From the IMG/VR virus record IMGVR_UViG_2565956616_000008: a stretch of 37,425 bases of DNA, one strand, 5' to 3'. Positions 5,104 to 14,282 of this stretch are shown here, in pieces (position 1 is the first letter of the stretch; each line of letters starts with the position of its first letter). Source of the stretch: a virus. Lineage: Duplodnaviria > Heunggongvirae > Uroviricota > Caudoviricetes. Below the pieces are notes generated by a model, which did not search any database, had not been told where the DNA came from, and worked only from the letters and a program-made list of their open reading frames with translations. The translations under genes were made by a program, and so were the position numbers.

Positions 5104-5316
5104 ATGAACAAAAAGACCTGGTTTCGCGCATACATGTGGGCGCTGGTATGCGTCCTCGTTTCTCTCATTCTGTATGTGGGGCTACTTCCCAGAATGATTT
5201 CATCAGACAGCTCCTTCCTGGTATTGCTGGGCATTTTTGTCGCCTTGCTGTACCCGGCGGGCGTTGTTCGCTTTTTCAGTAACTACATCAAAGCAATTAT
5301 GGAAACCAAACAATGA
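5104..5316 (+). CDS. small inner-membrane protein (two predicted TM helices)
   Basis: 70 aa, two hydrophobic stretches; stop overlaps the start of the SPFH gene. Confidence 0.55.
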   Translation: MNKKTWFRAYMWALVCVLVSLILYVGLLPRMISSDSSFLVLLGIFVALLYPAGVVRFFSNYIKAIMETKQ

Positions 5317-6137
5317 AAAAACTATTACCACTCATCCCTCTCCTGATGACCACACTTCTGGTTGGCTGTGACCGCGTGGAGCCGGGCAATGTAGGCATCA
5401 AAGTCAACAAACTGGGCGACGATAAAGGCGTCGGTGAAGTAGTTGGCGTTGGCCGCTACTGGACAGGCTGGAATACAGAGGTTTACATCTTCCCGACTTT
5501 CAAACAAATGAAGACTTACGATGAGCCGTTCAACTTCCAGATGAGTGACGGCACAACCATCGGCTATCACATCGGCGTGGCCTACAAAGTTGATCCATCC
5601 AAAGTTACCACTGTGTTTCAGACCTACCGCAAAGGCGTGGATGACATTACCGACACTGACCTGCGCCAGAAGATCGCCGATGCACTCAACCGACTGGCCA
5701 GCAAAATGACCACCGATAAGTTTATCGACGGTGGCAAGTCTGAACTGCTGGATTCAGCACTTAAAGACATTCAGTCAGAAATGACACCTATCGGCATTCA
5801 GGTCATGAGCCTCTCTTATGTCGGTAAACCGGAATATCCGCCAACCGTTATCGACAGCATTAACGCCAAAGTCACGGCAAACCAGAAAACCCTGCAACGC
5901 GAACAGGAAGTCAAGCAACGCGAAGCAGAAGCCAACATGTTGCGCGCAGAAGCTGCCGGACAGGCTGATGCCATTCGCACAAAAGCCCAGGCTGAAGCCG
6001 ACGCCATTCGTTTACGCGGTGAAGCTCTGCGCCAGAATCCCGGCGTTATGGAGCTGGAAGCAATCAACAAATGGAACGGCACGCTGCCGCAATACATGAC
6101 CAGCAACACCGCTGTTCCGTTTGTTCCGGTGAAGTAA
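5313..6137 (+). CDS. SPFH/band-7 (HflK/C, stomatin-like) domain lipoprotein
   Basis: 274 aa; signal peptide with lipobox LLVGC; SPFH-like core followed by an Ala/Glu/Arg-rich coiled-coil tail, the usual SPFH architecture. Confidence 0.75.
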   Translation: MKKLLPLIPLLMTTLLVGCDRVEPGNVGIKVNKLGDDKGVGEVVGVGRYWTGWNTEVYIFPTFKQMKTYDEPFNFQMSDGTTIGYHIGVAYKVDPSKVTTVFQTYRKGVDDITDTDLRQKIADALNRLASKMTTDKFIDGGKSELLDSALKDIQSEMTPIGIQVMSLSYVGKPEYPPTVIDSINAKVTANQKTLQREQEVKQREAEANMLRAEAAGQADAIRTKAQAEADAIRLRGEALRQNPGVMELEAINKWNGTLPQYMTSNTAVPFVPVK

Positions 6138-6142
6138 TTAAA

Positions 6143-6190
6143 CCCGGCCAGTGAAAATCGCTGGCCGGAGCAGTATCAGGATTTTTTTTA
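6143..6190 (+). terminator. putative terminator after the SPFH gene
   Basis: Stem CCGGCCAG/CTGGCCGG followed after a spacer by a run of 8 T. Confidence 0.5.
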
Positions 6191-6306
6191 GTATGCCGTT
6201 CTCACAAAAAAACCGCTTGCCATGCCGCAATCAGTCAGGTTACATTTCCGCTGCACCTCATAAAACGGGTGCCGGGTTTCGCAGCCTGCTGACAACCAAA
6301 GCGCAC

Positions 6307-6327
6307 AACCGCGCCAGCGGTTTTTTT
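6307..6327 (+). terminator. rho-independent terminator-like hairpin
   Basis: AACCGC-gcca-GCGGTT stem-loop followed by a 7-T run. Confidence 0.55.
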
Positions 6328-6368
6328 GTGCGTACTGTATTGCCACGTCTTTTTCGCACACGAATTAT

Positions 6369-6444
6369 GGCGGGGCGTACGGGGCCGACTTCGGTCGGGC
6401 CGGGTTCTTTGGTTGCCGGTACTGCGAACCCCGTACGTCTCGCC
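6369..6444 (+). promoter_or_regulatory. Long-stem structured element in the leader of the gene at 6507
   Basis: 6369..6384 pairs with 6429..6444 as a 16-bp stem with two G-T (G-U in RNA) pairs; inside, GCCGAC-TTCG-GTCGG(G)C hairpin with a UUCG tetraloop; possible sigma70-like promoter TTGCCA-17-AATTAT at 6340..6368. Confidence 0.45.
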
Positions 6445-6506
6445 ACCCACAGTTTCGCAGCTCTGGATAGTGAGTTTTCAAAACTTACAACCAAAGAGGC
6501 CACACC

Positions 6507-6737
6507 ATGGCAAACCGCAAACAGCACCGCGCTATCGCGGAGCGTCGTCACATCCAGACTGAAATCAACCGCAGACTTTTCCGCGCATTCCGCGTCGCGC
6601 ATATCATGCACATCAATATGCTGCATGAACGCAGTCACGCACTATCGAACAGCTATTCCGCCTCTGTTTTCAGCTATCTGGCAGATGATCTGCGCGAGCT
6701 TCAAAAGCTCATCCAGCAGCAAAACAAACTCCATTAA
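6507..6737 (+). CDS. small arginine-rich protein
   Basis: 76 aa; AAAGAGG 7 nt upstream; N-terminus ANRKQHRAIAERRHIQTEINRR is arginine-rich. Confidence 0.55.
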   Translation: MANRKQHRAIAERRHIQTEINRRLFRAFRVAHIMHINMLHERSHALSNSYSASVFSYLADDLRELQKLIQQQNKLH

Positions 6738-6809
6738 TTCCTGTTCCGGGCCTTTCCTGCACCTTGCGGCGGGAGGCCTTCGCACATCTGTAACAAGAGG
6801 ATTGCCGCA

Positions 6810-7175
6810 ATGATTCTCGCCAACGACTTTCTTGAATATCTGCTCAACACAGAACGTGATCTTGCCGCTCGCGTGCGTGATCGTTATGACATGTACCTGA
6901 AATCCCTGCCTGTACCGCAGCTCGCTGACGGAAAGATTGTTATTGATGGTCGCTACATGATTGACAGCCACGAGGGAAATTACAGGCTTTACCGCATTGA
7001 AGGTGGCACCCCGTCCGTTATTGGCATTTACCAGCGCCCATCCTCTGCAATCGTCGATGTGATTGCCGACAGCATCCGCATCACACATCGCCATGCCGAC
7101 ACAGAAGACACCGTGCTGGAAATTCAGCGGCTGGCTGCCGTTTGCCGTGACACCCTCAACGGTATGACGAAGTAA
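6810..7175 (+). CDS. hypothetical protein upstream of replication gene A
   Basis: 121-aa ORF; AAGAGGA upstream. Confidence 0.6.
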   Translation: MILANDFLEYLLNTERDLAARVRDRYDMYLKSLPVPQLADGKIVIDGRYMIDSHEGNYRLYRIEGGTPSVIGIYQRPSSAIVDVIADSIRITHRHADTEDTVLEIQRLAAVCRDTLNGMTK

Positions 7176-7181
7176 ATCAGT

Positions 7182-10004
7182 ATGACGACAGAGTACATCA
7201 GGGACTGGCAACAACCGCGCCACGCAGTAGGGCGTGAAGGAACGGGGATCCCCGCTCCTGAATCCGTGCTTTCCTCCTGGCTGGATGCCTACCGGGCAGA
7301 GAACGAGCGCCGCCAGAAAATGGCTGATGCGGCGTTCTCCGCCACGCCGCTGGGCAACCTGATTAATAAAAGCCTGGACGCACAGGAAAAACAGGACAAA
7401 ACCATCGCACTGGCAGGAGACGCCAGAAAACAGGCACGCGGCGCGGTGGATGAAGCCATGGCCTCGCTGCGCCTGCTGCCGTCCTATCTGCGCGATCCGC
7501 TTATTCGCCACCTCTCCTTCCTGCGCAAAAAACAGGAAGCCGATCGCCGGAAAGGCAAAAAGAGCTGGCAGGCGGAACGCTATGCACGCGGAACCCTGCG
7601 CAAAATATTCGAACGTCTGGAGCGCACCGATCACCGCTGGCTGACACAGGGTTATCGCTCCCTTGCCGGACGCGAACGCCTGGACGATTTGCTTTACCTG
7701 CCGCAGCTCAACAAACACCAGATACAGACGCTGGCCACCATGACGGCGGCGATGTTCAGCAGCACCTTCGAAAAACTCTGCGATGGCTTTGGCGCGACCG
7801 ATGGCGAACTGACCATGGATGTAACGCTGAAGGCGTATCAGATGCTGGCCCGCATGGCGTTACACCTGCACATCATGCCTCCACATTATGACGCACTGAC
7901 AACAGATAAAGACCGGAGGAACGAACCGGACACGGAGCTGCTGCCGGGCGCAATCCTTCGCCTGACCTGTGCGGAATGGTGGAAACGCAAACTGTGGCTG
8001 TTACGTTGCGAGTGGAGAGAAGAACAACTCCGCGCCGCCTGTCTGGTTTCCAGAAAAACATCACCCTATCTGAGCCAGGACGCGTTAAGCGAGTTTCGCG
8101 CACAGAGCGAGAAAACACGCGATTTCCTGAAAAGTTTCATGCTGGAAAACGAAGACGGGTTCACGATTGATCTCGAGACAGTGTATTACGCGGGAGTAAG
8201 TAACCCGGTTCACCGTAAGGCAGAAATGATGGCCACCATGAAGGGGCTGGAACTTCTGGCCGAAGCCCGTGGCGACAAAGCGGTGTTTCTGACTGTCACC
8301 TGCCCGTCAAAATACCACGCCACAACAGAGAACGGTCATCCGAATCCCAAATGGAACGGGGCCACCATGCGCGACTCCAGCGATTACCTGGTTAACACGT
8401 TTTTTGCAGCGGTCCGCAAGAAACTGAACCGCGACGGCCTGCGCTGGTATGGCATCCGCACGGTGGAGCCTCACCATGACGGCACCGTGCACTGGCATAT
8501 GATGGTCTTTGCTCATCCGGAAGAAATCGACACCATTGTGTCCCACACCCGCGATATTGCCATTCAGGAAGATCGTCACGAGCTGGGTGATGATATTACC
8601 CCACGCTTTAAGGCGGAGTTCGTCGACGGCTCAAAAGGCACGCCAACCAGCTACATCGCCACCTACATCGGAAAGAACCTGGACAGCCGCGCCGTGGATG
8701 GCATCGACCCGAAAACGGGCAAGCCACGCGTTGACCACGAAACAGATAAATCAATGGCCGAGAGCGTGGAGCGCGCCATCGGCTGGGCGCGCCTTCACCG
8801 GGTCCGCCAGTTCCAGTTCTTTGGCATCCCCTCCCGTCAGGTGTGGCGTGAACTCCGCCGCCTTGCCAGCCAGATGGCACGCAACCCGGAAGGCCCGCAA
8901 CGGCTGAAGGATGACGCAATGGATGCGGTTCTTGCTGCCGCTGATGCCGGGTGTTTTGCCACCTACATTGAAAAACAGGGTGGCGTACTTGTTCCGCGCA
9001 AGGACTACCTGATTCGCACAGCCTACGACCTCGCAGATGAGCTTAACGATTACGGCGAACAGAGTGTACAGATTTACGGGATCTGGTCGCCATTCATCGG
9101 GGAATCCTCCCGTGTGTGCACGCATCCGGATAACTGGAAGCTGGTAAGACGTAAACCGGAAGCGGAGGACAGCACCCGCGAAAATGGTTTTGACCTTCAG
9201 GGCGGCCCTGCCGCCCCTTGGACTCGTGGCAATAACTGTCCCCGTGTACAGGAAACGGACAACAACGGGACAGAACAGCCGGAAGAACGGCCAGCACCGT
9301 GGCCGCAGCTCCCTGACGGCGTTGAAGTGAACGAATGGATGCGCTCACTGAAACGGCACGAACGCCGGGCGCTGATGCGTTCGCTTCGTGACAAACAGGC
9401 AAAAAACAGCAGTGATGAAATGCAGAGCTGGACACAGAGCCGCAAACAGCAGCGGCCTTTGCCTGATAACCACGAATTACTCGCTAAAGAATGGCGGGAG
9501 TCTGCTGAATCTCTCGGCCTGCATATTGGTGAACAGCAGATGCAGCACCTGTTACGGGGCGGCAGTCTGTACGTTGACGGCAGCATCATTGCACCGCAGG
9601 GATTTGAAATTGTACGCAAACCGGATACCCGTCCGGACAGCCGGATCACGCAGCTCTGGCAGCGCCTGAGCCGTAACCACGGCGTAAGCAGCACGGAGAT
9701 CCGCCATAACCCGGTCGCCAGCTATCTGGAACAGCTGGGGGCATCAGACCCCGAAGCCGCCGCACGCCTGGCATCCACACTTCAGCAGGACCAGAACACC
9801 ATGAAAACACCCGTTACCGTGCTTTCTGACATGCTGCGCGCCATCCGCGACGCAGAGCACGCACAGAGAATCAGTGAAACCACTGAACGCGCCCGCCGCA
9901 AAGCAGACCTGCTGCGGGGTGGCCTGACCAGTGGAAACAAAAAACAGACAGAAACGGGATTCACAAATCCCGTAAATGAGCAAAAAACGCGCCGCGATAT
10001 ATGA
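7182..10004 (+). CDS. A: Replication initiator (P2 gpA family rolling-circle endonuclease) with a C-terminal extension
   Basis: 940 aa; position after the early genes and overall similarity to the P2 A family as recalled (region around YIATYIGKNLD); longer than P2 A, which I recall as about 760 aa. Confidence 0.85.
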   Translation: MTTEYIRDWQQPRHAVGREGTGIPAPESVLSSWLDAYRAENERRQKMADAAFSATPLGNLINKSLDAQEKQDKTIALAGDARKQARGAVDEAMASLRLLPSYLRDPLIRHLSFLRKKQEADRRKGKKSWQAERYARGTLRKIFERLERTDHRWLTQGYRSLAGRERLDDLLYLPQLNKHQIQTLATMTAAMFSSTFEKLCDGFGATDGELTMDVTLKAYQMLARMALHLHIMPPHYDALTTDKDRRNEPDTELLPGAILRLTCAEWWKRKLWLLRCEWREEQLRAACLVSRKTSPYLSQDALSEFRAQSEKTRDFLKSFMLENEDGFTIDLETVYYAGVSNPVHRKAEMMATMKGLELLAEARGDKAVFLTVTCPSKYHATTENGHPNPKWNGATMRDSSDYLVNTFFAAVRKKLNRDGLRWYGIRTVEPHHDGTVHWHMMVFAHPEEIDTIVSHTRDIAIQEDRHELGDDITPRFKAEFVDGSKGTPTSYIATYIGKNLDSRAVDGIDPKTGKPRVDHETDKSMAESVERAIGWARLHRVRQFQFFGIPSRQVWRELRRLASQMARNPEGPQRLKDDAMDAVLAAADAGCFATYIEKQGGVLVPRKDYLIRTAYDLADELNDYGEQSVQIYGIWSPFIGESSRVCTHPDNWKLVRRKPEAEDSTRENGFDLQGGPAAPWTRGNNCPRVQETDNNGTEQPEERPAPWPQLPDGVEVNEWMRSLKRHERRALMRSLRDKQAKNSSDEMQSWTQSRKQQRPLPDNHELLAKEWRESAESLGLHIGEQQMQHLLRGGSLYVDGSIIAPQGFEIVRKPDTRPDSRITQLWQRLSRNHGVSSTEIRHNPVASYLEQLGASDPEAAARLASTLQQDQNTMKTPVTVLSDMLRAIRDAEHAQRISETTERARRKADLLRGGLTSGNKKQTETGFTNPVNEQKTRRDI

Positions 10005-10045
10005 AGCGCGCATAAAACAGGCAAAAACGGGATTTCAGAATCCCG
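9954..10045. repeat. Two copies of a 20-bp palindrome (ACGGGATT-N4-AATCCCGT) 72 bp apart
   Basis: 9954..9973 ACGGGATTcacaAATCCCGT and 10026..10045 ACGGGATTtcagAATCCCGT, each flanked by AAACGGG...CCCGTAAA; first copy lies inside the 3' end of gene A, second just upstream of the parM-like gene. Confidence 0.5.
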
Positions 10046-10080
10046 TAAACGATTAATTAATCAACATAAGGAAAAGCGAC

Positions 10081-10909
10081 ATGAAAATTTGTATCGATGA
10101 CGGCTCCACCAACATCAAGCTGGCATGGACTGAGAACGGCCCAGACGACCGACACGCAATACCAGTACAGCGATGTGAATGTCATTGCCATTCATCACGC
10201 GCTGGTCAAATCAGGCATCACGCCACAGGAGGTGGATGTGGTTGTCACCCTGCCACTGAGCGAGTATTTCGACACAAACGCACAGCCGGACATGACCAAC
10301 ATCAACCGCAAAAAAGCGAACGTTATGCGCCCGGTGGAGTACCAGAACGGCGAAGCATTCACTATCCGTAACGTACGGGTTATGCCTGAATCCATTCCGG
10401 CTGGCTTTAAGGCACTGGCTGACATGAGTCCGTTTGAATCCCTGCTGATTGTGGATTTGGGCGGAACCACGCTGGATGTGGCAAAGGTTCAGGGGCAACT
10501 GGCAGGTATCAGCTAGGTGTTTTGCGATCCACACGTAGGCGTTTCTCTGATGGCCGATGCCGTACTGTCGGTGATGGCCACTAACGGTATGCGCACCAGT
10601 CACCACATCGCCAATACCATTATCGAACATCGCCATGATGAAGCCTGGCTGCGCCAGCACATCCACAATGACGCGCATTACGCCAGCCTGATGGCGGTTA
10701 TTCGTGAAAAGGAAGAAACACTGAAACAACGCGTGATCCGCGCGCTGGCGGGTTTTTCGGGTTACGGGCGGGTGATGGTTGTCGGTGGAGGGGCGGAGAT
10801 TGTGGCACCCGCTATCCGCGAAGCCTGCGGAGTTAATGCGACTTTCATCGCGGACGGGGTGCCACAGTTTGCTCTGGTTAATGGGCTGTACGCAATGGAC
10901 AAGGAGTAA
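10081..10909 (+). pseudogene. ParM/StbA-like actin-type partition ATPase, disrupted by a frameshift and an in-frame TAG
   Basis: N-terminus MKICIDDGSTNIKL in frame 1 (10081..); body with LIVDLGGTTLDV in frame 2 (10097..10516); in-frame TAG at 10514..10516; C-terminus with VMVVGGGAEI continues in the same frame to 10909. Confidence 0.7.
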
Positions 10910-10913
10910 ACCA

Positions 10914-11225
10914 ATGACGACACCAACCAGACGGATAAGTTTCTATCTGAAGCCTGCGGCCGTCAAGAACGAAAGCGAAGCATGCGCCTGGCTGGACAGC
11001 CTTACACCAGAAGCCCGCAAAAGCGGCCAACGCGTGGCTTTTCTGGCCGGGCTGGCACTTCTGAAAATGAATCCGGCAGAGGCTTACCGACTGGCTGCAT
11101 GGGCTGACGATGAGGCGTTATCAGTGACACAAACCAGGACAGAATGCCCCGCGTCACAGCCAGTATCAACCGCACAGATAACCAGTCAGATGGCCGGAAA
11201 TATCCGGGCGTTATTTCCCGAATAA
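10914..11225 (+). CDS. ParR/StbB-like small partition protein (tentative)
   Basis: 103 aa; AAGGAG 7 nt before ATG; pattern RRISFYLKP...LDSL...AFLAGLALLK...LFPE resembles plasmid StbB as recalled; sits directly after the parM-like gene as in parMR loci. Confidence 0.5.
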   Translation: MTTPTRRISFYLKPAAVKNESEACAWLDSLTPEARKSGQRVAFLAGLALLKMNPAEAYRLAAWADDEALSVTQTRTECPASQPVSTAQITSQMAGNIRALFPE

Positions 11226-11288
11226 CACAACATCAGGGCGCATCCGCCCTGATGACTTTAATCCGGGAACATAAACAAGGGGGACACA

Positions 11289-11624
11289 ATGCAACACATT
11301 GACAGAGAAAAAGCGCAGCGACTGATTGAGCGAATGGAAGCGCTGGCGAAAGAAGAAAATGTCAACATCCAAAAAATAGCTGAATGTGGCCAGATAGTTC
11401 TTCGTCGTGAAAAAGACATCAAGCAACTGATGTCTGGCGGAATCAGCAAAACATGGACTTCAGGCAAGAAGACGATTTATTGCAGCTTCTGCAATAAATC
11501 CCAGCACGAAGTCATAAAGGTGATTGCCGGACCGTCTGTTTACATCTGCAATGAGTGCGTGGATTTGTGCAATGAAATTATCAGAAGAGAAGTGACAGAC
11601 CATGAAGAAAAAACGCATGAATGA
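11289..11624 (+). CDS. Small protein with a C-terminal ClpX-type zinc-binding domain (orphan ClpX N-domain)
   Basis: 111 aa; residues [38 protein letters not shown] closely match the ClpX N-terminal C4 zinc-finger dimerisation domain as recalled; no AAA+ module follows; AAGGGGG upstream. Confidence 0.75.
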
Positions 11625-11686
11625 CGAATTTGACGGCTTTTAATTTTATCGGGGCGCACTGTCTCCCCCCGCACGAGGAAAACACG

Positions 11687-12211
11687 ATGAAAAAATACGA
11701 ATACATGCTAATGAAAGAAGCACTGCGGGCTGGTCTGGCTCCCTGTCCTGTATCCGTAGAAGCTGTTGTTGGGAACACGATTTTCCGAACGCTGCGAAAT
11801 CGCGTATCCGTGAAGATGATTCACCAACCACCCAAATCTACCAGCATGATCTATCTGCCGCTGCCCGAGGCTATCAAACTTATGCGTTCGCTGAAATTTG
11901 CGATTTGGATGCAGACACAACTCAACAAAGCGGTGCAAAACACCTTCGTTAAGAAACTGATGCCGGAGCTTGCTGCCAGATGTGCAAAATGTACCAGACC
12001 CGCACTTCAATTTGATCTGTCATTGATTCAACAAGCTACGGAGGCAGAACTGTACCGCCTGTCACCTCTCCATGATGTTCACACGGAAGCCTCAGAAATG
12101 TTCCGGCTCATGTTTCAATTTAATTTTGCCGTTCGACGCACACGCGTTCAGGTCAATCGCATGATGCAGGCGCAGGAAGAGCTGACGCAACACAAAGGAG
12201 GCAACCAGTGA
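11687..12211 (+). CDS. hypothetical protein
   Basis: 174-aa ORF from ATG 11687 (GAGGA 8 nt upstream); track ORF starts earlier at 11621. Confidence 0.5.
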   Translation: MKKYEYMLMKEALRAGLAPCPVSVEAVVGNTIFRTLRNRVSVKMIHQPPKSTSMIYLPLPEAIKLMRSLKFAIWMQTQLNKAVQNTFVKKLMPELAARCAKCTRPALQFDLSLIQQATEAELYRLSPLHDVHTEASEMFRLMFQFNFAVRRTRVQVNRMMQAQEELTQHKGGNQ

Positions 12212-12732
12212 GCAAGATTGACTATCAGGCATTACGCGAACGCTATTCACCTGCGCCAGTACCGAAATGCCCTATTTGCGGCGAGGAAATGTCAATTCAG
12301 CGAATATCTGGAGCACAGGTTGTTTATGCCTGCTCCGGTTATGGTGATGATGGAGATTTCAAAATTGGTCGAACTCTTGCCGACGAACATTATGAAAAAT
12401 CGCGCGTAACAGTGTTGGATGTCGGGGATCCTGAAGTATTGGCGCTACTTGATTGGCTGGAAACTAAAGACAACCGAATCGCTGAACTGGAAAAAATCGC
12501 CACTGACTATGCACTTAAATTCCAGAAAGCACAGGACGCATTAAAGCATGCCGCTTTGCTGCATAGCCGGACGGCGCAACAAACAAATAATTTTGCAGTA
12601 TCGCTTCCGGACATAAGCGAATATTTCATTAATGACGTATTTCAGCCCTTGCGATACGAGCGGGATGTTGAAAGAGCCATCATAAAGGCTGGCGGAAAAG
12701 CATTGTGGCAGGAGAAACACGACGACAGATAA
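12208..12732 (+). CDS. hypothetical protein with N-terminal Cys pairs (possible zinc ribbon) and coiled coil
   Basis: 174 aa; GTG start overlapping the previous stop, AAAGGAGG upstream; CPICGEEM...YACSG at the N-terminus. Confidence 0.55.
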   Translation: MSKIDYQALRERYSPAPVPKCPICGEEMSIQRISGAQVVYACSGYGDDGDFKIGRTLADEHYEKSRVTVLDVGDPEVLALLDWLETKDNRIAELEKIATDYALKFQKAQDALKHAALLHSRTAQQTNNFAVSLPDISEYFINDVFQPLRYERDVERAIIKAGGKALWQEKHDDR

Positions 12733-12784
12733 AAATAACACCTGATCTCCCTCAAACCAGGGCGATAATCGCGCATCGCCCTGC

Positions 12785-12811
12785 TGCACAATAGTGCACA
12801 AATTTGCACAA
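12785..12811. repeat. Three direct TGCACAA repeats at 10-bp spacing
   Basis: TGCACAA at 12785, 12795 and 12805, followed by a T-run. Confidence 0.45.
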
Positions 12812-13185
12812 TTTTTTTGAACGACTTTTTGCCCTTCCGGCCCGCGTGGCGGCTGGATCCGTCAAGGATCCGTGCGTGCACAAAAAAACGCGCTTTTTCT
12901 GCGCGCAGGTGACGGGGGAACAGCCCGCGTTTCAGGGGGTAAATAGCGTTCCCTTAACGATGTCGCAGCGACACGACAGAATGGCCGTATTTCTCACGCT
13001 GAGCGTGAAAAATACGTGAGGGATTCTGATTTGATGGGGTGAAAGGTAAGGCCGTCAAAATCGCACTGAGGCGGCGAGAACATGCAGTCAACGCGGTGGG
13101 ATTGCGTAAGAGTCTGACCGTCGATGGTGGCGATAAACTGGAAGGCGTCGTGAAATTATCTGACTGATACAGGAGCTGGAGAGTC

Positions 13186-13208
13186 GGGGCATAAATTTTT
13201 TATGCCCC
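13186..13208. other. Perfect 23-bp palindrome GGGGCATAAATTTTTTATGCCCC just beyond the portal gene stop
   Basis: 10-bp arms with a 3-nt centre; no flanking T-run on either strand, so not a classical terminator. Confidence 0.4.
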
Positions 13209-13235
13209 GGCGAAGCAGCAGACAAGCGAAGCGCG

Positions 13236-14282
13236 TCAGGATGTGGGCTGGATGTCTAACAGTGCGTAAGGGTTAAAGCGGATCACCTCTTCGCCAAGCC
13301 AGTCATTGATGTGCTTCATGGCCTCCATGACGGGCATCAGCTCGTTAATTGCGTAAACCCGCGCGGCCTTCTCCACATCACCAAACGCACTTTTTTCACC
13401 CGGCATCGCCCCCATCAGTTGCGGCGGAACGCGGTGCGCAGCCAGCACATCATCACGGGATGCCGCCTTAACATTCATGAACTCATCCTTTGCGGTGATC
13501 TGCTGGAACGGCAAAATTTGCACCCCCTCTTTGCCCCCGTTGGGCGCATGAATGAGCACGTTTTTAAACGCACCACCACCACGCGCACCCTGTAGCGTTT
13601 CTTTCAGGGAGTCCATGCTTTCGCGGTTTACCTGCGCTGCACCGATGTAGATGATGCACCCGGCGTGGGATCCGTTGTCGTAATACAGTTTTCTGAACAT
13701 GTCCGCCGAATGAGACAGGCTGGCCGAGAGTAATGCGCCGAGATATTCCGGCATGCCGTAGATTTCCTGGTTAATGTCAGGATTCATCAGGTGACACACT
13801 TTGCCTGGGCGAAACTGAAACGCATCCTTGCCATCCTGCACATACCACCATGATTCAAGATCGCTTCCGCGTCGCATGTATTTCGCCAGGGCGTGCCGTA
13901 ATTTAAGCGGTTCGCCGAGCATATTGCTTCGAAGCTCAAGGAATGCGTTACCGAACACAAACCAGTCCAGCGCCAGCGCCGAGAAATCCTGCCGGGAAAG
14001 CAGCGGGTGCGGAATATAGCAGCCGAGCAATACATTGCGCTTAAAGTAAAGCGCAGACTGATGCCAGGACGTTTGCCGGGCAGCTCTTGCCAGACCGTAC
14101 CAGTCTACCGGGGTTTCATACCACCGCCCGTTATCAGCACAGTACATATTGTCCAGCAGGTCATGCCCGGTCAGGCGATAAGGACCATCAAATGTGAATG
14201 CACTGAGCGATGATTCTTTCCTGAGCGCATCAGCGAGATCAATGCGTGAACTCATGCGCACTTTTTTATTTTTTCTGCTCAT
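13236..14282 (-). CDS. Q: Portal (capsid vertex) protein
   Basis: 348 aa; similar to the P2 gpQ portal family as recalled; start overlaps the terminase stop. Confidence 0.9.
   Translation of the reverse strand: MSRKNKKVRMSSRIDLADALRKESSLSAFTFDGPYRLTGHDLLDNMYCADNGRWYETPVDWYGLARAARQTSWHQSALYFKRNVLLGCYIPHPLLSRQDFSALALDWFVFGNAFLELRSNMLGEPLKLRHALAKYMRRGSDLESWWYVQDGKDAFQFRPGKVCHLMNPDINQEIYGMPEYLGALLSASLSHSADMFRKLYYDNGSHAGCIIYIGAAQVNRESMDSLKETLQGARGGGAFKNVLIHAPNGGKEGVQILPFQQITAKDEFMNVKAASRDDVLAAHRVPPQLMGAMPGEKSAFGDVEKAARVYAINELMPVMEAMKHINDWLGEEVIRFNPYALLDIQPTS

Follow-up and report, generated by a model that had tools for sequence, protein, structure and literature searches.

The window analysed here, a stretch of 37,425 nucleotides (IMG/VR record IMGVR_UViG_2565956616_000008), is an E. 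coli prophage of the P2 family, P88-like in type (Xuanwuvirus, Peduoviridae). Its early region contains a gene (11289..11624, + strand) for a protein of 111 amino acids, here called the ZBD protein, in which a zinc-binding domain (ZBD) of the kind that forms the N-domain of the host unfoldase ClpX is joined to a non-ClpX N-terminus. This orphan ClpX ZBD is not a one-off fusion, as it belongs to a conserved two-domain family. The ZBD protein may act in trans as a mimic of the ClpX N-domain that diverts adaptors or substrates, a function to which we assign a probability of about 45%. This is the most economical reading because the protein combines a ClpX-like ZBD that appears to be under selection with an intact docking pocket and has no motor.

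A ClpX-type zinc-binding domain joined to a family-specific hairpin

The gene starts with an ATG, and a Shine-Dalgarno-like purine-rich AAGGGGGA, read from the sequence, lies 4 nt 5' of this codon. An earlier reading of the letters of the window (hereafter the sequence-only reading) had proposed this open reading frame (ORF) with exactly these limits, and Pfam and PHROG matches as well as the RefSeq annotation agree with it. That reading had also proposed that the protein ends in the ClpX zinc finger but lacks any AAA+ module, and both halves of the proposal hold. The Pfam profile zf-C4_ClpX (PF06689), with a gathering cut-off of 27 bits, matches residues 64-99 (model positions 2-38/39) with 63.7 bits and E=1.5e-17, and among solved structures the E. 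coli ClpX ZBD (1OVX, 2DS5-2DS8) gives the best sequence matches, at E ~1e-20. The zinc ligands C65, C68, C87 and C90 are all kept, and their spacing (CxxC-x18-CxxC) is invariant across every family member examined. By its profile score, its four-cysteine spacing and its predicted fold the domain clearly belongs to PF06689. The protein as a whole is no ClpX, since the AAA+ module that defines this unfoldase was looked for and is absent: the ClpX equivalogs (NCBIfam TIGR00382 and NF003745) score about 50 bits on positions 6-53/414 only, with cut-offs of about 360-370 bits (370.75 for one of them). Compared with K-12 ClpX, 33 of the 45 residues from 60 to 104 are identical (73%), and the share rises to 32/38 (84%) when residues 64-101 are set against ClpX residues 14-51. 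The description of this string as near-identical to ClpX was therefore fair but slightly generous, and the string is not the extreme C-terminus of the protein, which is finished by 10 charged residues after the ZBD (residue 101). The protein as a whole, from residue 1 to 105, matches positions 5-106/107 of PHROG 6797 ('unknown function') with E=1.8e-56.

The structure was modelled with AlphaFold2 (AF2) from an alignment of eight family members, with a mean predicted local distance difference test score (pLDDT) of 78. In this model, residues 6-48 (11304..11432, +) form a helical hairpin (helices 6-22 and 27-48; pLDDT ~80-89), approximately residues 51-62 (11439..11474, +) form a flexible linker (pLDDT <50 at 51-59), in which allele differences and a recombination point are found, and residues 63-101 (11475..11591, +) form the C4 ZBD, with its four cysteine ligands, the pocket residues I63, F67, A80, Y85 and I97, and a C-terminal helix that extends to residue 110. 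Foldseek superimposes the modelled ZBD on 2DS5, 2DS6 and 2DS8 with a root-mean-square deviation of 0.8 Å, a target TM-score of 0.86-0.90 and 78-82% identity. The domain is predicted to have the fold of the solved ClpX ZBDs, that is zinc-bound beta-hairpins followed by an alpha-helix. Against the PDB and BFVD, Foldseek matched the ZBD half only and found no match for the hairpin.

The N-terminal half, which the sequence-only reading had taken for an unrelated 55-residue extension, is indeed non-ClpX, but it consists of this conserved hairpin and a linker of about 12 residues. A HMMER search with residues 1-58 against 1.84 billion representative proteins gave 11 hits in total, and the six that were retrieved are all family members or truncated or frameshifted family fragments. 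A further hit, P0125 (1,212 amino acids, 33% identity; not among the six), is weak and probably represents a chance coiled-coil match. Pfam gave noise alone for this region (NAF, E=0.12), and on the basis of the hits retrieved and of this Pfam result hairpin homologs outside the family were rejected. The ZBD is present in every intact hairpin-bearing member examined, and residues E17, E23 and L38 of the hairpin are invariant in the eight-member alignment. From these comparisons the hairpin appears to be a module specific to the ZBD protein family, which has a fixed two-module layout.

Origin and selection of the captured domain

At the DNA level the ZBD region shares 87/135 nucleotides with K-12 clpX (64%), with a longest exact run of 10 nt. 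Only 17 of 45 third codon positions are the same, which is near saturation, and the codon is shared with clpX at only 12 of the 33 conserved residues. Since 33/45 residues have been held while third positions have kept only 17/45, the capture of the domain from clpX is old and the protein has been kept by purifying selection. A recent duplication of the host gene is rejected by the same values. Among related E. coli alleles the ratio of non-synonymous to synonymous substitution rates (dN/dS) is ~0.1-0.3 in both folded modules, and most of the non-synonymous differences fall in the 12-residue linker; counts are small and these values are indicative only. Within the ZBD, the recurrent allele differences are H73/Y73 and I76/T76, both located on the putative ligand face. 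The ClpX-like surface of the ZBD is under selection.

In an alignment of family members from E. coli, E. albertii, Salmonella, phage D6 and the phage-plasmid PhiR41_1, which are 43-95% identical, the residues that are invariant besides the cysteine ligands are F67, A80, G81, V84, I86, E89, V91, D92, N95 and I98, and hydrophobic character is maintained at I63, Y85, L93 and I97. Residues I63, F67, A80, Y85, L93 and I97 of the ZBD protein correspond to L13, F17, A30, Y35, L43 and I47 of ClpX (numbered with Met1). In ClpX, lambda-O, trigger factor, SspB and RssB bind in a 'hydrophobic side pocket' made up of F16 and I46 (numbered without Met1; PMC7804408), and these two residues are retained as F67 and I97. 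The C-terminal helix (V41-I48 in ClpX numbering) is almost identical to that of enterobacterial ClpX, with D46E as the sole difference. The core of the docking pocket is intact, but its rim is altered, as detailed below.

Possible function as a mimic of the ClpX N-domain

ClpXP governs how stable sigma-S, SOS components, phage and plasmid replication initiators, cell-division proteins and several antitoxins are, and much of its selectivity runs via the ClpX N-domain. The isolated ZBD has reportedly been used as an in vitro competitor by Wojtyra in 2003 and Thibault in 2006, with the degradation of lambda-O and MuA among the reactions inhibited. SspB, RssB and a number of substrates dock on the N-domain, and its deletion abolishes RssB-mediated sigma-S turnover while sparing the degradation of ssrA-tagged proteins; when supplied separately at 5-20 uM, the ZBD inhibits the RssB-mediated breakdown of sigma-S by 0.6 uM ClpXP in vitro (PMC7226468). 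UmuD', lambda-O, MuA, FtsZ and metal-free MqsA also use the ClpX N-domain, which recognises the MqsA degron (PMC8808172).

In the mechanism that we propose, the ZBD protein would dimerise through its ZBD like the isolated ClpX domain does and would offer a docking groove detached from the motor. This free groove would titrate ligands that need to dock on the ClpX N-domain, and candidates include the SspB tail, RssB, UmuD/UmuD', replication initiators of the lambda-O type and others, MuA-type proteins and cryptic antitoxin degrons like that of MqsA. ClpX N-domains could also be drawn into mixed dimers. The outcome would be a selective inhibition of N-domain-dependent ClpXP proteolysis, with ssrA-tagged substrates, which are recognised by the pore, remaining unaffected. 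The phage might benefit because a labile phage or plasmid protein would be protected or because ClpXP-dependent host responses, such as toxin-antitoxin activation, would be blunted. The hairpin most likely would add oligomerisation, and hence avidity, or target specificity.

Several observations weigh against this proposal, and the first group concerns the rim of the groove. The family was compared with 43 distinct ClpX N-termini (numbered with Met1). Position 12, which is L, V, I or M in 37/43 ClpX sequences, is T, A, P or N in all family members; position 23, which is H in 42/43, is H or often Y; and positions 24 and 27, where E and K are invariant in the ClpX set, vary. The allele of the window has T62, I63 and H73. 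In ClpX, the substitutions L12S, L13A/D and H23A weaken binding of the MqsA degron, and H23 has been implicated in binding of the SspB tail (PMC8808172). As positions 12 and 23 have changed, and ClpX mutations at these positions weaken docking, ligand specificity may differ from that of ClpX, and the groove of the family may bind other ligands or may bind the ClpX ligands weakly. A second difficulty is that in vitro the free ZBD competes weakly and is needed in micromolar excess (PMC7226468), so that high expression or avidity would be required. Moreover, the strict conservation of the hairpin would be unexplained if a bare ZBD sufficed, and that the gene is made early after induction or infection is something we infer from gene order only.

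The drift of groove positions 12, 23, 24 and 27 would also fit a role that is unrelated to ClpXP, in which a mosaic 'Ea-type' early protein, such as one that regulates the choice between lysis and lysogeny or another host factor, would have reused the ZBD as a generic module for zinc-stabilised dimerisation or for protein binding. We regard this as rather unlikely, although of the alternatives it survives best. The gene lies beside or inside modular arrays of Ead/Ea22- and EaA-like genes in D6, PhiR41_1, P88 and the window, and modules have been shuffled at the linker and at the N-terminus, as would suit a mosaic protein of this kind. The zinc-binding domain of the anti-sigma factor CsfB resembles the ClpX ZBD. 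This anti-sigma factor relies on zinc binding, according to one study (PMC5890618). However, 84% core identity in spite of saturated synonymous sites far exceeds what a generic zinc-ribbon dimeriser would need, and the hydrophobic docking pocket is intact.

The conserved C-terminal helix bears on another alternative, in which the protein works as a phage adaptor or 'poison subunit': a mixed dimer of ZBD and ClpX would plant the hairpin on the hexamer, where it would recruit a particular protein of the host or the phage for degradation, a gain of function, or would sterically block the pore. The C-terminal helix reportedly forms, in the paper on 1OVX, much of the dimer interface of the ClpX ZBD, and it is in this helix that the family is near-identical to enterobacterial ClpX, unlike the orphan ZBD of a Pseudomonas phage, whose helix has diverged. 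A strictly conserved, family-specific hairpin on a flexible linker is the layout of a tethering adaptor, and the recombination of two N-terminal alleles onto one ZBD is what would be expected if the N-terminal module sets specificity. ClpX ZBD dimers are constitutive and are present at high local concentration on the hexamer, however, and a free protein may not exchange with them efficiently; no candidate target has emerged, and short orphan ZBDs of other phages occur without a second module. We therefore consider this alternative improbable. That the gene is a functionless, decaying fragment of clpX, as might be suspected from the dead parM two genes upstream and from the truncated or frameshifted condition of some relatives, is effectively refuted by its intact frame and good ribosome-binding site (RBS), by the persistence in E. 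coli, E. albertii, Salmonella and phage-plasmids of a full-length family whose members are 43-95% identical, by low dN/dS in both modules, by third positions that are saturated relative to clpX while residues are conserved, and by its presence in the viable phages P88 and D6.

The locus and its variable cassette

In the window the left end carries an integrase (1-1008, - strand) and a helix-turn-helix repressor (1063-1404, -). These are followed by a rightward early operon that runs from a Cox-like protein (1508-2029, +) over an SPFH protein (5313-6137, +), gpA (7182-10004, +), a dead parM (about 10081-10909, +), parR (10914-11225, +), the ZBD gene and a 174-amino-acid ORFan (11687-12211, +) to an Ead/Ea22-like gene (12208-12732, +). 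The leftward portal (13236-14282, -) and terminase genes come next. The ZBD gene thus occupies the slot between gpA and the portal gene, where the sequence-only reading had placed it, and the cargo of this slot varies among relatives. No sigma-70-like promoter was found in 9900-13300, and since the gene lies on the same strand as the early operon its expression would occur by read-through. As this appears to be an early lytic gene, a role in lysogenic conversion, for example raised RpoS in lysogens, seems less likely.

Between the parR stop and the RBS of the ZBD gene, a perfect 10-bp stem-loop (11231..11254, +) marks the 5' edge of a cassette. The region folds with -25.8 kcal/mol (z = -4.5) and leaves the RBS unpaired. 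P88 has the same stem-loop, no U-tract follows it on the + strand, and Rfam gave no match at the ZBD locus. A promoter or terminator belonging to the ZBD gene itself was rejected, there being neither a sigma-70-like site nor a + strand U-tract. The whole cassette of stem-loop, RBS and gene (11227..11620, +) was delimited by comparison with P88-like prophages that lack it. In strain RM11911 the 174-amino-acid gene directly follows parR, and because the two genes abut there the segment 11227-11620 represents a precise indel. Its junctions lie at stop-codon contexts, GAATAA for parR and GAATGA for the ZBD gene.

On the 3' side, DNA homology between the window and P88 ends exactly at the stop codon of the ZBD gene, with different cargo beyond. 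In another prophage, P0015 (locus L017), homology to the window starts at 11460, inside the linker (approximately codon 58), so that the ZBD half and the 174-amino-acid gene are common to both, while the N-terminal half is a D6-type allele. That P0015 joins a D6-type N-terminal half to a window-type ZBD half indicates recombination at the domain boundary, and the locus clearly illustrates how modules are shuffled where domains and genes meet.

The neighbours of the gene vary. In P88 and UTI89 the downstream cargo is an Ea22-like protein of 104-112 amino acids, followed in UTI89 by an XF1762-family gene with a product that hits the PHROG 'Mom-like DNA modification protein', and in Salmonella it is Ogr/Delta. 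In phage D6 and PhiR41_1 the homolog lies within arrays of Ead/Ea22- and EaA-like early genes. The antitoxin Phd of P1 is a ClpXP substrate, and a Phd/YefM-Doc toxin-antitoxin pair follows the ZBD gene in E. coli C7 (L011, 3503-4254), a single case that may be a coincidence. PhiR41_1 (L003) carries a UmuD-like gene (8820-9209) about 3.5 kb from the ZBD homolog, which may also be coincidental. Across the eight contexts compared no obligatory neighbour was found, and a fixed partner or toxin-antitoxin module was rejected because the neighbours differ in the window, P88, UTI89, C7, D6, PhiR41_1 and Salmonella. A tie to the parMR partition genes was rejected as well, as these are absent in the D6, PhiR41_1, Salmonella and P0015 contexts. 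The lack of a conserved neighbour, the precise indel and the varied contexts suggest that the target of the ZBD protein is a host protein rather than a phage partner.

The 174-amino-acid gene adjoins the ZBD gene in the window and in L017 and occurs without it in RM11911. Its product has no hit in Pfam, PHROG, NCBIfam or PADLOC, has only 8 database clusters among 5.8 billion and gives an unusable AF2 model (pLDDT 48), and was rejected as a functional clue. PADLOC-DB 2.0 gave no hit either for the ZBD protein, parR, the parM pieces, Ead/Ea22, the SPFH protein, the 196-amino-acid ORF at 11621-12211 that contains the 174-amino-acid protein, or the ORF at 6151-6813, and a role as a component of a known anti-phage defence system was rejected on this basis.

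Distribution and annotation of the family and orphan domains elsewhere

Of 5,426 complete E. coli genomes, 112 (~2%), UTI89 included, carry the ZBD gene, and 660 carry P88-type parR (at a coverage of at least 80%), from which approximately one in six P88-like prophages would carry the cassette. The plasmids listed include about 94 non-mobilisable ones of ~75-115 kb, from Escherichia, Salmonella and Shigella, that carry members of a clade with ~50% identity; we read them as phage-plasmids because of their size and their lack of mobility functions. Viable phages such as P88 and D6 also carry the gene. The truncated or frameshifted relatives in the databases are P0010, P0018, P0122 and P0124.

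The family is already catalogued, under PHROG 6797, under a RefSeq/PGAP name and in phage P88, so that the existence of the protein is not new. RefSeq names it 'ClpX C4-type zinc finger protein' on copies that are 99.9% identical. Older records, including P88 (KP063541, 10195-10527), D6 (NC_050154, 78777-79097) and many nr entries, mislabel the family as 'carboxylate-amine ligase', a name for which no support was found in the sequence. A search of the full-text literature retrieved no functional study of the ZBD family or of any orphan ZBD protein.

Unrelated phages, with Pseudomonas, Caulobacter and Klebsiella as hosts, encode short orphan ZBDs that lack the hairpin (PHROGs 12435, 5259 and 20296). 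The Pseudomonas phages PSA04 and PP9W2 encode one of 65 amino acids, which in PSA04 lies among nin-region genes (ninB, ninG), and another is present in Caulobacter phage Cr30. In Klebsiella phage ST846-OXA48phi9.2 (L007) an unannotated ORF of 73 amino acids (2501-2722, +) encodes an orphan ZBD in the interval between cII and the replication genes; the record annotates a 51-amino-acid ORF on the opposite strand instead. The orphan ZBDs of the Pseudomonas and Klebsiella phages are thus located in early gene regions, and the recurrence of short orphan ZBDs in unrelated phages suggests that a ZBD is of use even when it stands alone.

Other features of the prophage

The parM gene upstream of parR is a pseudogene. 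Two lesions set it apart from the intact parM genes of ETEC4090 and P88: a 131-bp deletion at ~10140, which shifts the frame, and a CAG-to-TAG nonsense change at 10514-10516. It consequently appears as three ORFs, each with part of the StbA_N/ParM_N domains, next to a parR that looks intact. Two near-identical inverted repeats (9954-9973 and 10027-10046; ACGGGATT-n4-AATCCCGT) flank the gpA stop upstream of parM and could be a parC-like centromere, an operator or terminator hairpins.

In the early region, Rfam identifies the Hfq-binding small RNA isrK (6253-6327, +; 65.9 bits) and a C4 antisense RNA (6363-6450, +; 87.1 bits). An ORF at 6151-6813 that holds or adjoins both is Ash-like according to Pfam and is recorded in RefSeq as a partial 'ash family' pseudogene. 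The combination of isrK and C4 suggests a P1/P4-style antisense-RNA element for the control of immunity or of an anti-repressor. The SPFH protein, singled out by the sequence-only reading as a second candidate modulator of proteases, is real (Band_7, E=5.8e-31). It matches phrog_200 and weakly resembles HflC and HflK, which modulate FtsH, and the L017 prophage has the same gene upstream of gpA. The SPFH protein is a candidate modulator of FtsH, and hence of lysis-lysogeny control of the CII type, independently of the ZBD gene.

Significance and comparison with known systems

Temperate enterobacterial phages and phage-plasmids might, as we tentatively suggest, have domesticated the receptor domain of ClpX as a dedicated early protein that selectively shuts off or re-targets N-domain-dependent ClpXP proteolysis while infection proceeds. 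This would make it the first 'receptor-domain decoy' of natural origin for a bacterial AAA+ protease, with the independent orphan ZBDs of Pseudomonas, Caulobacter and Klebsiella phages as convergent cases. Such a decoy would possibly protect a phage protein or stop toxin-antitoxin or abortive-infection responses that are triggered by ClpXP. If true, mobile elements would have a new route to edit host proteolysis, in which the receptor of the protease is copied and no foreign inhibitor is used, and the gene would provide a ready-made genetic tool to switch off only the adaptor-dependent branch of ClpXP. The ZBD gene is common and small, and it is easily assayed with existing ClpXP reagents, which makes the idea directly testable. 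If ClpXP turned out to be untouched, the family would still be a clear instance, of modest interest, of a host domain captured and modules shuffled among the accessory genes of phages.

The closest relative of the domain, the E. coli ClpX N-domain (1OVX, 2DS5-2DS8), shares with it the C4 zinc-finger sequence, the predicted fold, the docking pocket and the C-terminal helix. In contrast to ClpX, the ZBD protein has no AAA+ unfoldase and carries its ZBD C-terminally, behind a hairpin; in addition, L12 is replaced, H23 is often Y, E24 and K27 vary, and the DNA is only 64% identical. The isolated recombinant ClpX ZBD is likewise a free ZBD without a motor, but it is a laboratory construct, whereas the ZBD protein would be naturally evolved and equipped with an extra, conserved module. 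The short orphan ZBDs of other phages are likewise free-standing domains of the ClpX type, but they lack the hairpin, have a helix far more diverged from that of host ClpX and belong to separate families. Among phage proteins known to modulate host proteases are T4 PinA and T7 Gp4.5, which act on Lon, SPO1 Gp53, which acts on ClpCP, and the ClpS homologs of jumbo phages (PMC7824862). With these proteins and with the anti-adaptors IraP, IraM and IraD, the ZBD protein would by analogy share the character of a small accessory protein, encoded by a mobile element, that re-routes or blocks regulated proteolysis, although none of them is related to it in sequence or fold. The difference would lie in the mode of action, since all of these proteins bind to the adaptor or the protease as foreign ligands, whereas the ZBD protein would copy the receptor of the protease itself.

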